Below are positions 38,829-41,407 of a DNA stretch of 64,000 nucleotides, piece after piece. The stretch's first letter is position 1; every line of letters starts with the position of its first letter. A model generated the notes under the pieces. That model saw nothing but the letters and a program-made list of their open reading frames with translations. It searched no databases and was not told the origin of the DNA. The stretch comes from Escherichia coli. GTDB lineage: Bacteria > Pseudomonadota > Gammaproteobacteria > Enterobacterales > Enterobacteriaceae. The DNA lies in the NCBI RefSeq assembly GCF_003334385.1, contig NZ_QOWN01000004.1, one strand, 5' to 3'. The translations under genes were made by a program, and so were the position numbers.

Positions 38829-39329
38829 TTAGAGTGGTTGTTTAAGTTCGGTTAAAACCATATCTATGGTGTATATAATAATAAGTACACCACTAATCGG
38901 GATGCTCATATAGATATATCCCATTTGCCAGCCTAAAGCGGGCGAGGTCTGACCTGAATCGAATGTATCCATCGTTAATAGCCCACCACCATATACCATA
39001 ATGATGGTTGCGAAGATAATAACGATAATCTGAATACACAAAAATAAATGACGTCGGGCTTTTCCTTTCAGCATCATAGGTAGCAGGTCAATCGCCAGAT
39101 GCCGGTTTTGCCCTGCGGTGTATGCCCCACCAAAAAGTCCAAGACAAATAAAGAGCAAACGGCTGAGTTCATCTGTAAAAATACTGGGACTAGTAAATAT
39201 AAATCGTGCAGCCACCTGCCACGTCACACATGCCACGATGATCGCCAAAATGGTAATGTTCAATGCTGCAAGCAGAGCATTAATAGATCTAATTATATTT
39301 CGCATAGTGATTAACCTTTGCAATATCAT
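38829..39329 (-). CDS. TRAP transporter small permease (DctQ family)
   Basis: ORF track; 166 aa, four hydrophobic helices; ATG overlaps stop of the upstream gene (ATGA); alternative start ATG at 39305. Confidence 0.7.
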   Translation of the reverse strand: MILQRLITMRNIIRSINALLAALNITILAIIVACVTWQVAARFIFTSPSIFTDELSRLLFICLGLFGGAYTAGQNRHLAIDLLPMMLKGKARRHLFLCIQIIVIIFATIIMVYGGGLLTMDTFDSGQTSPALGWQMGYIYMSIPISGVLIIIYTIDMVLTELKQPL

Positions 39330-41407
39330 TCATCCTGTGGCTGGTAAATTGTCCCATTAAGAAAACCAGGCCAGTTTTTTTCAAACCAAATACCTCGGAT
39401 AATAGGAAACTCACGAACAGGTGTTTCTCTGACGTGAAAGATACCGTTGCAATAATGAATAAGTAGTTTATCTTTTTTATCCTCAGTACGCTCTGAACGA
39501 AAGCGCCAGGCATCACAAAAACCATTTCGTGTTTGCGGAATAGAATTTCCATCCCTGTCGAGAATAATACGTGCTCCCCGACTACCACCACCTGCGTCAA
39601 TATAATGCGTTAATTGCGTTAATACGGCGGCAGAAGTCAGTGCCATATGCCGCCACATAAACAGCTCGGCAACTTCACCCACATGTTTGATAGCCAATCC
39701 ATGCCGTTGGACAAATTCGCTCAATAGCAGGGCATCGCGAGTGGCGCGTCGGACTTTATCGGCATGGCAAATAAATCCCGCATGGTCAGACATTCGTGCC
39801 TGAATTTTTTCTCTCACAACCGACAACGGCATCCCGGTCCCGTTATCGTGCGCCTGAGTAATGATCTCTCTTATAGAAGCCAGTGTAGGAGCTACCAGCT
39901 GTGCTATATCTCCATCAATATTCCGCTTTTGCGTGCAACCAATAAAACGTGCCAGACGAACAGCAAAAACCTGCCCGGCATTCAATGCTGCACCACCAGG
40001 GCGAGTGACGCCGTGTGTGCCAGCAACTTCCCCCACGGCGAAACAGCCGGGCAGGGAGGTTTGTCCCCAGATATCCACTTCAATGCCGCCATTCATATGC
40101 TGATTATTCATGGCAAACTGCAAAGGCTGTGTGGTGAGATCGTAACCGTGCATCTTATACAGCGAGATAGACAGCGGATTCATTCGTTGCAGCCGTTCGA
40201 TGGGCGATGGTGCCAGAGCGTCGTTATTTTCCAGATACGCGCGAACGTCGTCGTCCAGTCGATCTAATGAGAACGGCAGGTCACCCGGCACCGCTTCAGG
40301 ATTGCGATTGAAATCCATAAATACCTGACGCCCTGATTGCTGCTCTTGCGCTACTGCCATATCTAACAAGCTGGAGCCAAAATCCATCACCCGAGTGGCG
40401 TGGAACGGCCACTGATAGCCTTTACGGAAAATGTTTGAAGCCAGCTCCTGGGTGGTGCGATAGTAATCCGCGAGGAAGTTATACTCGTTACCCTCAGCAT
40501 CCACGGAATAGATATACGGGATCACCTGTACATAGGTGCCGGATAAATTCCACGGAAACGTGCTACGCGGCGTGCCTATACCAAACTGGCTTTCGGTCAG
40601 ATTGGTTAGCGTCAGGCCTTCCTCCAGCGCCAGCCCCAGCGAGCCAAAACATTTGTGTGGGTACACACTGTCGCGATAAAGCTCGCCAGGCCCTCCTGTT
40701 GCCAGTACCACATTGGGCGCAGTCACAATTGCCAGCCCCCAAGGGTTATGGGCGCGATGACCGGTCGCGAGGATTGCCCCCGCAACACGGTCTTCGCCGT
40801 TTTCGTCACGCTGATGCAGCAGTTTAATCACTGTTGCACAGGTCAACACTGGAATGGCGAGGCGCTGTACTTCTTCCAACAGCACTTTCACCATTAACCT
40901 TGAGGTACGCGGCCCACACGAGGTTGCACGCCCGGCTTCGTCATGGTCGGTTTGATAACGAAGAATCGCGCCATAGCGATCTTCCGGTAATTCCAGACCA
41001 AGATATTGCAACCCGCCAAGAGTGTGCAGAGAACCTACCGCTTCGACATAAGCGGTGTCGTGATCCATCGCCCCACCGCTCGCCAGTGCCTCTGCCAGTT
41101 TGGTGAAGTTGTCGCCGTTGCCCGCGGTAGCGGCGGTAAACAGTGTCTGTTTATCGGAACCAGAACATGCCGACGTCCCCATATATAACCCGGCGGTGGC
41201 GATCAGCACATTTTGCTGGCGGCGTTTAAGTTCCACAGCTGCACGCAGCCCGGCTGCACCACTGCCGACTACCAGGGCATCTGTTTGCCAGAGTGGGTAA
41301 TCAACACCGTCTACCGTGACAACCCATGCGGGCTCTGCCTGTGCAAAACCCTTTGGGAAAGTAACGTGCGTCAGCGCATCAAGGATGGTGTCATCAAGCT
41401 GACTCAT
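39326..41407 (-). CDS. FAD-dependent oxidoreductase, fumarate reductase/succinate dehydrogenase flavoprotein-like (FAD_binding_2 type) with C-terminal extension
   Basis: ORF track; 693 aa; N-terminal dinucleotide fold ALVVGSGAAGLRAAVEL and C-terminal FAD motif GCFAVGEVAGTHGVTRPGGAALNAGQVFAVRLARFI. Confidence 0.8.
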   Translation of the reverse strand: MSQLDDTILDALTHVTFPKGFAQAEPAWVVTVDGVDYPLWQTDALVVGSGAAGLRAAVELKRRQQNVLIATAGLYMGTSACSGSDKQTLFTAATAGNGDNFTKLAEALASGGAMDHDTAYVEAVGSLHTLGGLQYLGLELPEDRYGAILRYQTDHDEAGRATSCGPRTSRLMVKVLLEEVQRLAIPVLTCATVIKLLHQRDENGEDRVAGAILATGHRAHNPWGLAIVTAPNVVLATGGPGELYRDSVYPHKCFGSLGLALEEGLTLTNLTESQFGIGTPRSTFPWNLSGTYVQVIPYIYSVDAEGNEYNFLADYYRTTQELASNIFRKGYQWPFHATRVMDFGSSLLDMAVAQEQQSGRQVFMDFNRNPEAVPGDLPFSLDRLDDDVRAYLENNDALAPSPIERLQRMNPLSISLYKMHGYDLTTQPLQFAMNNQHMNGGIEVDIWGQTSLPGCFAVGEVAGTHGVTRPGGAALNAGQVFAVRLARFIGCTQKRNIDGDIAQLVAPTLASIREIITQAHDNGTGMPLSVVREKIQARMSDHAGFICHADKVRRATRDALLLSEFVQRHGLAIKHVGEVAELFMWRHMALTSAAVLTQLTHYIDAGGGSRGARIILDRDGNSIPQTRNGFCDAWRFRSERTEDKKDKLLIHYCNGIFHVRETPVREFPIIRGIWFEKNWPGFLNGTIYQPQDE

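Follow-up and report, generated by a model that had tools for sequence, protein, structure and literature searches.

The gene at 39,326-41,407 of a 64,000-nucleotide window of Escherichia coli DNA (contig NZ_QOWN01000004.1 of assembly GCF_003334385.1; the window is the whole stretch analysed, and all positions refer to it) encodes a 693-aa flavin adenine dinucleotide (FAD) flavoprotein that represents a widespread orphan version of a classic flavoenzyme. The gene is part of a hitherto uncharacterised catabolic island that E. coli shares with Klebsiella and Salmonella. The protein has the complete four-domain SdhA/FrdA/NadB architecture, is closest to NadB at fold level, and has a substrate site that is predicted to have been rebuilt with invariant residues of its own family in place of the fumarate/aspartate site. 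Genomic context points to a predicted role in sugar-acid catabolism rather than in the conversion of fatty-acid or steroid-type substrates.

A complete four-domain flavoprotein

The gene starts with ATG, is preceded by a GGAGGA Shine-Dalgarno sequence 6 nt 5' of the start codon, and shares the tetranucleotide ATGA with the stop codon of the adjacent coenzyme A (CoA)-transferase gene, resulting in a 4-nt overlap. It lies on the minus strand, a detail absent from the original prediction, which had been made from the nucleotide sequence alone. The translation contains the GxGxxG-type motif VVGSGAAG of the dinucleotide fold at residues 46-53 and a second FAD motif, GCFAVGEVAGTHG...RPGGAALNAGQVFAVRLARFI, at residues 454-489, and it ends in ...IRGIWFEKNWPGFLNGTIYQPQDE. 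FAD_binding_2 (PF00890) is the sole significant Pfam domain (residues 43-475, E 3.7e-27). Homologues are present in thousands of genomes and align over essentially the full length of the protein, so the gene is not a chance open reading frame. The start codon, ribosome-binding site, quoted peptides, PF00890 match and homologues all bear out the original prediction of a 693-aa FAD flavoprotein, and its assignment to the fumarate reductase/succinate dehydrogenase-type superfamily is upheld at fold level by PF00890 together with the domain comparison.

A further claim, that the residues following the second FAD motif constitute an extra domain beyond the flavoprotein core, was not borne out. There are 204 such residues, and an AlphaFold2 model of the protein (predicted local distance difference test score, pLDDT, 92.4; predicted template-modelling score, pTM, 0.94) as well as profile comparisons place them in the standard helical and C-terminal domains of the superfamily. 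Profile A1, an alignment of 54 full-length homologues, was searched against PDB, aligning the C-terminal part of the protein to the helical domains of NadB, SdhA and FrdA and pairing the A1-invariant GGGSRG with the ESRGAH motif of NadB/SdhA/FrdA-type proteins. Comparison of A1 with E. coli FrdA (strain 190 copy) using hhalign matched query residues 39-654 to FrdA 3-566 with a probability of 99.4%, and Foldseek alignments against SDHA and FrdA chains extended over ~650-700 columns, with target-length normalised TM-scores of about 0.59-0.80. The helical C-terminal domain, the ESRGAH-type arginine and the short beta domain are all present, and this alignment to the C-terminal domain of FrdA/SdhA is the very outcome named beforehand as contradicting a non-standard extension. 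KstD is not the closest relative in fold or sequence, and the protein has the helical C-terminal domain whose absence would mark a KstD-type enzyme.

The four helices of the C-terminal domain (501-522, 528-542, 549-569 and 576-604 in the model) align to NadB 424-503, SdhA 372-550 and FrdA 415-540. In the segment that follows, R610 and G611 of GGGSRGA are invariant in A1 and equivalent to ESRGAH, and the modelled beta-hairpin 646-663 is the counterpart of the FrdA/SdhA C-terminal domain, with the hhalign alignment stopping at query 654/FrdA 566. Residues P668, F675, E676 and W679 of the tail are nearly invariant. The surplus of the 693 residues over the 602 of FrdA is made up of ~40 residues at the N-terminus, an enlarged capping region and a terminal helix of ~25 residues. 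Residues 1-42, in which no signal peptide or membrane anchor is evident and which form a helix and hairpin in the model, align fully only in some of the closest relatives (best-segment identity at least 52%), and for many relatives at 35-41% identity the alignment begins only near residue 30. In the capping region, profile positions 252-389 were left unaligned to NadB, SdhA and FrdA by hmmsearch.

The active site departs from those of fumarate reductase and aspartate oxidase

Active-site residues were mapped through hhalign and the invariant columns of A1, which in the capping region amounts to a low-identity, low-confidence profile alignment. The histidine of covalent FAD attachment (FrdA H44) is replaced by T78, located in an invariant G-T-S-x-x-x-G-S-D-K-Q-T loop, so that FAD is presumably bound non-covalently. 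FrdA H232 and T244, of the second-carboxylate site, correspond to G276 and Q294, and the proton-pathway residues E245, R248 and R287 correspond to V295, a gap and S345; G276, Q294 and S345 are invariant in A1, within the stretch of low-confidence alignment. The first-carboxylate clamp of FrdA (H355 and R390) is retained as H437 and R469, both invariant. Of the residues grouped as Motifs I, II and III in soluble fumarate reductases (bioRxiv 10.1101/2022.01.20.477176), Motif I comprises three, and the flavoprotein keeps two of them, H437 and R469; the third, an arginine shared with Motif III, is S345. The conservation of active-site residues on which the original prediction depended hence holds for the first-carboxylate clamp and fails for the covalent histidine, the second-carboxylate site and the proton pathway.

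The family displays a set of invariant residues of its own. The loop S79...G83-S-D-K-Q-T88, including D85-K86-Q87, occupies the position that lies over the flavin in FrdA, and further A1-invariant residues are W286, N287, S289, G290, Q294, K329-G-Y-x-W-P, S345, S346, D349, R405 and N410. All FAD-binding motifs are strictly conserved in A1. This pattern suggests that one carboxylate is probably still bound next to flavin N5 via H437/R469.

Curated protein models agree with the residue pattern. No NCBIfam model reaches its cut-off, with scores 5-10 times below every curated threshold: the best is TfrA (125 bits, cut-off 718), followed by NadB models (50-107 bits, cut-offs of about 450-723) and SdhA and FrdA models (37-80 bits, cut-offs 567-930). 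Since its active-site residues are replaced and the NCBIfam scores concur, the protein is, as judged by sequence, not a fumarate reductase, succinate dehydrogenase or aspartate oxidase. A paralogous fumarate reductase/succinate dehydrogenase flavoprotein or L-aspartate oxidase is what the best database matches (NCBIfam TfrA, NadB and SdhA, together with PDB sequence and fold searches) would indicate at face value, and some sources do name homologues 'succinate dehydrogenase flavoprotein subunit'. We find this explanation scarcely credible, contradicted as it is by these scores, by the missing covalent histidine and five missing catalytic residues, by the absence of iron-sulfur and membrane subunit genes nearby, and by the genuine frdABCD located elsewhere on the chromosome of the closely related E. 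coli strain 190, whose 9.1-kb operon is 100% identical. Annotation of these proteins as 'succinate dehydrogenase flavoprotein subunit' or 'L-aspartate oxidase' is incorrect.

A large family without a characterised member

An exhaustive search of 50%-identity representatives returned 3264 matches, 422 of them at E<1e-30; many of these 422 clusters have lengths of 640-700 residues, and their alignments run from about residue 30 to about residue 689. Names among the 50 best AFDB50 relatives listed are all generic or at family level ("FAD-binding protein", "Oxidoreductase", "Succinate dehydrogenase flavoprotein subunit"), and these relatives include proteins from Enterocloster bolteae, Clostridium citroniae, Victivallis vadensis, Succinatimonas hippei, Halanaerobium, Treponema and Promethearchaeum. 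The family ranges over gut Clostridia, Victivallis, Planctomycetes, Rhizobium, marine Rhodobacteraceae and an Asgard archaeon, and is common in strict anaerobes among the AFDB50 relatives. We found no characterised member of the family, and a literature search located no paper on the operon or on the flavoprotein family. A PHROGs scan of four operon proteins returned nothing useful.

The flavoprotein gene belongs to a catabolic operon

The flavoprotein gene lies in a 9.4-kb island between rplI and ytfB in the E. coli chromosome (Table 1). A TetR gene is divergent from a block encoding, in order of transcription, a short-chain dehydrogenase/reductase (SDR), a triosephosphate isomerase (TIM) barrel protein, an enoyl-CoA hydratase, a CoA-transferase, the flavoprotein and the DctQ, DctM and DctP components of a tripartite ATP-independent periplasmic (TRAP) transporter, with genes 3-9 nt apart or overlapping.

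Table 1. Features of the island and of the encoded flavoprotein, in window coordinates.
Feature	Positions	Strand	Basis
GC-rich hairpin, 12 bp, flanked by A and T runs, between convergent rplI and dctP	36371-36397		terminator scan
TRAP transporter, entire	36461-39305	-	NCBIfam
DctP	36461-37432	-	NCBIfam
DctM	37485-38786	-	NCBIfam
DctQ	38829-39305	-	NCBIfam
Flavoprotein gene, 693 codons, ATG start	39326-41407	-	open reading frame list, translation
Residues 606-693: GGGSRGA motif, beta-hairpin, family-specific terminal helix (WFEKNW...)	39329-39592	-	hhalign, A1
Four-helix C-terminal domain, residues about 491-605	39593-39937	-	model and profile alignments
Capping region, enlarged and divergent, residues about 276-400	40208-40582	-	A1 invariant columns, hmmsearch, hhalign
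N-terminal extension before GxGxxG, residues 1-42, helix and beta-hairpin	41282-41407	-	model secondary structure
CoA-transferase, family I, fused alpha/beta subunits, YdiF/FadX-like	41404-42945	-	NCBIfam FadX (383 bits) and PcaI/PcaJ halves
Enoyl-CoA hydratase (crotonase)	42955-43737	-	NCBIfam crotonase matches
Xylose-isomerase-like TIM barrel (AP_endonuc_2)	43741-44583	-	PDB, NCBIfam
SDR, PRK12745 type	44593-45384	-	NCBIfam PRK12745 (413 bits, cut-off 250); RefSeq coordinates
Near-perfect palindrome, 22 bp	45453-45474		sequence; inverted-repeat scan
TetR/AcrR regulator, divergent from operon	45597-46244	+	RefSeq annotation

The CoA-transferase matches YdiF (PDB 2ahu, E 1e-113), and the enoyl-CoA hydratase keeps both catalytic glutamates, located in GGGIELAL and SNPEV of its translation. 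PDB matches of the TIM barrel include 3qc0 and 3ju2 (the latter being Sinorhizobium meliloti SMc04130; E 3e-84), with weak NCBIfam matches to IolO, Hyi and OtnI; its Klebsiella and Salmonella orthologues are annotated with PF01261, and the protein is a putative keto-sugar-acid isomerase, epimerase or dehydratase. The SDR scores 111 bits on the KduD model, for which the cut-off is 339. The palindrome, ATCAACCATCTGGTTGGTTGAT, lies in the 212-bp TetR/SDR intergenic region and is a plausible candidate TetR operator for the operon. At the opposite end, the hairpin between rplI and dctP is a likely bidirectional terminator and coincides with the left island border, with K-12 homology stopping at position 36402.

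The immediate neighbours of the flavoprotein gene are those encoding the CoA-transferase and DctQ. As originally predicted, no separate electron-transfer subunit is encoded nearby, with no iron-sulfur, cytochrome or electron-transferring flavoprotein (ETF) partner gene close by. The E. coli operon likewise holds no old yellow enzyme (OYE) or FMN_bind gene, and its flavoprotein carries FAD_binding_2 alone. Genes for the CoA-transferase, crotonase and flavoprotein are contiguous on one strand, and the proposed role in C=C or acyl-CoA chemistry stays plausible because the two genes immediately upstream encode a CoA-transferase and a canonical enoyl-CoA hydratase. Fatty-acid or steroid-type substrates are not those to which the context points.

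Some database entries from E. coli and relatives (P0002, P0034 and P0086; 973-1078 aa) join the CoA-transferase (PF01144) to the flavoprotein. Because of the ATGA stop/start overlap seen in the window, such entries probably stem from frameshifts or read-through in gene calling and not from genuine fusions.

Close structures are also available for the flavoprotein's companions: 4da9 for the SDR, 3qc0/3ju2 for the TIM barrel and, for the enteric-type Gfo/Idh/MocA (Gfo) enzyme found beside some relatives (locus L009, 6686-7837), 3oqb (E 3e-185). All four are structural-genomics structures deposited under generic names, and because three companions have their close structures under such names, the whole module seems to be an annotation blind spot.

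Distribution of the island

Of 5426 complete E. coli genomes, 1446 (about 27%) carry at least 80% of the 9.1-kb block. K-12 MG1655 lacks positions 36403-45841 and has yjfZ in their place, with homology resuming at 45842. It retains a 102-bp remnant of the SDR gene at 81% identity, and its pseudogene ytfA corresponds to the 3' 402 bp of the island TetR gene. Since ytfA and the SDR fragment survive there, the operon seems to have been lost from K-12 and not acquired by the window strain.

Klebsiella oxytoca (79% identity) and one Salmonella enterica genome (77%) carry the TetR gene and the SDR, TIM barrel, enoyl-CoA hydratase, CoA-transferase and flavoprotein genes in the same arrangement and at the same rplI/ytfB site (positions 5160-13405 of both loci, L090 and L091). 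In these genomes the TRAP transporter is replaced by a 425-aa major facilitator superfamily (MFS) protein of the D-galactonate / anion:cation symporter subfamily (315 bits). An additional EamA-family gene lies between the MFS gene and rplI.

Sugar-acid genes surround relatives of the flavoprotein

The genomic neighbourhoods of relatives were scanned in one genome per species, yielding 80 loci in which open reading frames were called and clustered and cluster representatives annotated; neighbours within 6 kb were counted in the 72 loci where the flavoprotein open reading frame was called. SDRs are the commonest neighbour (30/72), followed by Gfo dehydrogenases (22/72), LacI regulators and glucose-methanol-choline (GMC) oxidoreductases (15/72 each), PfkB kinases resembling 2-keto-3-deoxygluconate (KDG) kinase (14/72), 2-keto-3-deoxy-6-phosphogluconate (KDPG) aldolase, Eda, and OYE-type flavoproteins (13/72 each), and the TIM barrel (8/72).

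In the alphaproteobacteria, the order Gfo-flavoprotein-kinase is fixed, with adjacency in 14/14 and 9/9 cases. Rhodobacteraceae and Rhizobiaceae loci encode a sugar ATP-binding cassette (ABC) transporter, two GMC oxidoreductases, a 102-aa protein and a LacI regulator, followed by Gfo-flavoprotein-kinase(-Eda). The fully annotated operon of a Rhizobium plasmid reads CoA-transferase, enoyl-CoA hydratase, aldehyde dehydrogenase, sugar ABC transporter, GMC, GMC, Gfo, flavoprotein and sugar kinase. The conserved ~102-aa protein, which has no family match and always follows the GMC pair in Rhodobacteraceae loci (L019, L022, L025 and others), may serve as a small subunit in a GMC dehydrogenase complex.

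The fixed alphaproteobacterial order bears on an explanation in which the flavin has no net redox role and the protein is a dehydratase, isomerase or ring-opening enzyme acting on a sugar acid, filling the aldonate-dehydratase slot between Gfo and KDG kinase in semi-phosphorylative Entner-Doudoroff clusters or replacing KduI. The Gfo-flavoprotein-KdgK(-Eda) clusters contain no recognisable dehydratase, the catalytic proton-shuttle arginine is lost, an electron partner is absent from many loci and the family is common in strict anaerobes, all of which favour such a role. We nonetheless consider it improbable, given that the FAD-binding motifs are all strictly conserved and that OYE-like NAD(P)H modules adjacent or fused to the flavoprotein argue for real electron flow. 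To our knowledge, no non-redox member of this fold has been described.

Phycisphaerae loci encode an OYE/GltD-type ene-reductase, an SDR, Eda, a BNR_4 beta-propeller, the flavoprotein and a kinase, and other uncultured Planctomycetota and unclassified bacterial metagenome-assembled genomes have compact OYE-flavoprotein-SDR-kinase operons. A metagenomic protein of 1084 aa (P0149) fuses an OYE domain (Oxidored_FMN, residues 34-240) to the flavoprotein family (residues 449-1041) and is the one natural fusion of this kind seen; no FMN_bind domain was seen in it or in the relatives with adjacent OYE genes. In four Phycisphaerae loci (L055, L056, L062 and L068), a conserved 504-aa BNR_4 (PF15892) protein with no NCBIfam match is encoded between Eda and the flavoprotein gene, directly upstream of the latter; it could act as a glycosidase or lyase to free the acidic sugar.

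A combination of TIM barrel, Gfo, SDR and flavoprotein genes is found in Pseudescherichia, Phytobacter, Mangrovibacter, a betaproteobacterium, Lentisphaeria and Coraliomargarita, with an MFS gene added in the enterics, and Brenneria has the arrangement TetR | SDR-TIM-flavoprotein-MFS, with SDR and TIM barrel proteins 72-74% identical to those of E. coli. Upstream of the flavoprotein in L008, L049 and L074, the genes are unrelated or unannotated (housekeeping genes in L008 and L074), and the modules there are therefore short. Contigs encoding two distant representatives were not long enough to add information.

CoA-transferase and enoyl-CoA hydratase genes recur with the flavoprotein in Clostridia, Desulfobacterales, Devosia and Rhizobium. 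A Clostridia locus (L077) reads UxuB-like, flavoprotein, CoA-transferase, enoyl-CoA hydratase, cupin, SDR, CoA-transferase and LacI, and a Desulfobacterales locus contains a sugar ABC transporter, enoyl-CoA hydratase, SDRs, a zinc-dependent alcohol dehydrogenase, CoA-transferase, two acyl-CoA dehydrogenases and an IlvD-type dehydratase. In locus L067 the flavoprotein is flanked by a CoA-transferase and two acyl-CoA dehydrogenases. No CoA-transferase or enoyl-CoA hydratase gene was found within 10 kb of the SDR, TIM barrel and flavoprotein genes in Brenneria, Pseudescherichia, Phytobacter, Mangrovibacter and Lentisphaeria, whose flavoproteins are relatives at 56-59% identity.

These loci bear on the possibility, which is the original idea stripped of its extra domain, that the flavoprotein converts a CoA thioester supplied by the neighbouring enzymes, working as an enoyl-CoA reductase or an acyl-CoA dehydrogenase. 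The three enzymes might perform a carnitine-like reductive dehydroxylation, with CoA-transferase, crotonase and flavoprotein in the roles of CaiB, CaiD and CaiA, or CoA-transferase, flavoprotein dehydrogenase, enoyl-CoA hydratase and SDR (as 3-hydroxyacyl-CoA dehydrogenase) might form a beta-oxidation-like cycle, of which they would supply four of the five activities. The overlap of the CoA-transferase stop with the flavoprotein start, the canonical enoyl-CoA hydratase, the consecutive flavoprotein, CoA-transferase and enoyl-CoA hydratase genes of L077 and the CoA-transferase and acyl-CoA dehydrogenases of L067 are in its favour. We regard it as unlikely because the module persists without either CoA enzyme in these 56-59% identity relatives, because FrdA, NadB and the urocanate reductase UrdA use the retained His/Arg pair to clamp a free carboxylate, and because L067 already has dedicated acyl-CoA dehydrogenases. 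We know of no FAD_binding_2 enzyme that acts on a CoA ester.

Two transporter types and the predicted ligand

The closest solved relatives of the island DctP include PDB entries 4ovr, 4x8r, 4n8y, 4n15 and 4n91 (E 1e-71 to 1e-62). The ligands of three of them are glucuronate (4x8r), galacturonate (4n8y) and D-glucuronate (4n91), and 4n15 has served as modelling template for the glucuronate binder STM3169 (PMC11668362, PMC7660916). The GARSFY, RVQxS and AEN motifs of DctP are identical or nearly so in all aligned hexuronate binders. The MFS protein that replaces the TRAP system in Klebsiella and Salmonella belongs to a subfamily that we take to hold DgoT, ExuT and GudP. Two unrelated transporter types, TRAP and MFS, point to an acidic sugar as the predicted ligand.

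The Brenneria operon uses instead an MFS protein of PcaK-like aromatic-acid/H+ symporter type (369 bits), which would suit an operon for the breakdown or reduction of quinate, shikimate or another hydroaromatic acid. In that case the SDR would serve as dehydrogenase, the TIM barrel would resemble dehydroshikimate dehydratase, and the flavoprotein would act as an enoate reductase on a carboxylate-conjugated ring C=C bond. Dehydroshikimate dehydratases share the TIM-barrel superfamily fold, shikimate is an alpha,beta-unsaturated carboxylate, and the shape of a pyranuronate resembles that of quinate. This explanation appears very improbable in view of the KDG kinase, KDPG aldolase, LacI, sugar ABC transporter and GMC/Gfo genes around relatives of 52-58% identity, of the galactonate/hexuronate-type MFS used by Klebsiella and Salmonella, and of the lack of any significant PDB match between the TIM barrel and AsbF-type dehydratases.

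A possible role in sugar-acid catabolism

We propose that the flavoprotein is a soluble oxidoreductase with non-covalent FAD that moves hydride at a position alpha or beta to the carboxylate group in a sugar-acid intermediate, a reading whose chances we judge to be evenly balanced. Catabolism of a hexuronate- or aldonate-like acid is suggested by the neighbours of relatives at 52-59% identity and by the two independent transporter types. The TetR-controlled accessory operon would import such an acid through its TRAP transporter; the SDR would carry out an alcohol/ketone step, the TIM barrel would isomerise or epimerise next to the ketone, and the CoA-transferase and enoyl-CoA hydratase would activate the acid and then perform a beta-elimination or hydration. 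Hydride would be transferred between FAD and the carbon alpha or beta to a single carboxylate, either in a FrdA-type (de)saturation of C-alpha and C-beta or in a NadB-type oxidation of a C-alpha bearing OH or OR. The carbon would most likely enter the KDG/Entner-Doudoroff route, and in many lineages the pathway appears to end at KDG kinase and KDPG aldolase. The substrate is more likely a free acid, given that close relatives lack the CoA-transferase and enoyl-CoA hydratase, and the retained carboxylate clamp is in keeping with this. In lineages other than E. coli, the electron partner would probably be an OYE-like NAD(P)H module; this association, parallel to the NADH input of soluble FAD_binding_2 reductases, argues for real electron transfer and for the reductive direction, at least in anaerobes.

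Several points weigh against this proposal. The E. coli operon shows no evident electron donor or acceptor, and uronate or aldonate routes to KDG need no obvious flavin step, leaving the position of the enzyme in such a pathway unexplained. The ATGA overlap in E. coli and the flavoprotein, CoA-transferase, enoyl-CoA hydratase order in Clostridia fit a CoA-thioester substrate equally well. Transporter homology predicts ligand class only loosely, as the aromatic-acid-type transporter of Brenneria illustrates, and the mapping of capping-region residues depends on a profile alignment of low identity.

None of the detailed schemes that we examined explains all components. A CoA-dependent 4,5-dehydration of uronate to 5-keto-4-deoxyuronate (DKI), followed by KduI/KduD-like steps, would leave the flavoprotein without a role; oxidation at C4 and decarboxylation of uronate to a pentose is a misfit with the KdgK/Eda neighbours; and reduction of lyase-derived 4,5-unsaturated uronates looks wasteful. 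Epimerisation at C5 or C2 via a keto intermediate by the flavoprotein and SDR, oxidative ring opening of a 'locked' pyranuronate or anhydro-aldonate, and an inositol-like route via 5-deoxyglucuronate were likewise not adopted, as nothing discriminates among these schemes.

More tentatively, and as a possibility to which we lend less than even weight, the flavoprotein may represent a new functional class of the NadB/FrdA superfamily acting on uronate- or aldonate-type acids, and the operon an undescribed, partly CoA-dependent route for hexuronate-like sugar acids. Example substrates for such a route would be uronates that the UxaC pathway cannot open or epimerise, such as L-iduronate, 4-O-methyl-glucuronate and anhydro-uronates. 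The island is found in over a quarter of complete E. coli genomes, and none of its five enzymes has an assigned function. If the sugar-acid proposal is true, it would add a new reaction type to a very well-studied fold, fill a gap in the use of acidic sugars by gut, plant-associated and marine bacteria, and show the reason for the recurring CoA chemistry in those clusters.

Comparison with known systems

Among characterised enzymes, NadB (PDB 1knr, 1chu, 2e5v) is closest in fold, with only about 21% sequence identity. Its catalytic H244 corresponds to G276 in the flavoprotein, and its R290 we take to be the counterpart of FrdA R287, which aligns with S345. The flavoprotein differs from NadB also in its extra N-terminal hairpin, larger capping region and C-terminal hairpin and helix, and in a catabolic context as opposed to NAD biosynthesis. 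With FrdA and SdhA it shares all four domains, including the helical and C-terminal beta domains, and the equivalents of H355, R390 and the ESRGAH arginine, but it is devoid of the covalent-FAD histidine, the C1-carboxylate motif (H232, T244), the proton pathway (E245, R248, R287) and FrdB, FrdC and FrdD partners.

In the soluble NADH-dependent reductases (Klebsiella FRD, the acrylate reductase ARD of Vibrio harveyi and UrdA), the FAD_binding_2 domain reduces a mono- or dicarboxylic enoate, changes in Motifs II and III set substrate specificity, and an OYE-like domain brings in the electrons of NADH (bioRxiv 10.1101/2022.01.20.477176). The flavoprotein family resembles them in being fused once to OYE and often encoded beside an OYE gene, and differs from FRD and ARD in that the fusion protein P0149 lacks FMN_bind and that, in E. 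coli, neither OYE nor FMN_bind occurs in the same protein or operon.

The operon logic is also similar to that of E. coli CaiB/CaiD/CaiA, where a hydroxy acid is processed by a CoA-transferase, a dehydratase of crotonase type and a flavoprotein oxidoreductase. There, CaiA is an enzyme of acyl-CoA dehydrogenase fold that relies on the FixABCX ETF, and CaiB is a family-III transferase; in contrast, the operon described here combines a flavoprotein of FrdA/NadB fold with a family-I transferase and adds an SDR and a TIM barrel. The hexuronate and KDG routes (UxaC/UxuB/UxuA, KduI/KduD and KdgK/Eda) share with it the KDG-kinase-like and KDPG-aldolase genes beside the flavoprotein of its relatives, an SDR as in KduD and uronate-type transporters, but they do without any flavoprotein, CoA-transferase or crotonase.

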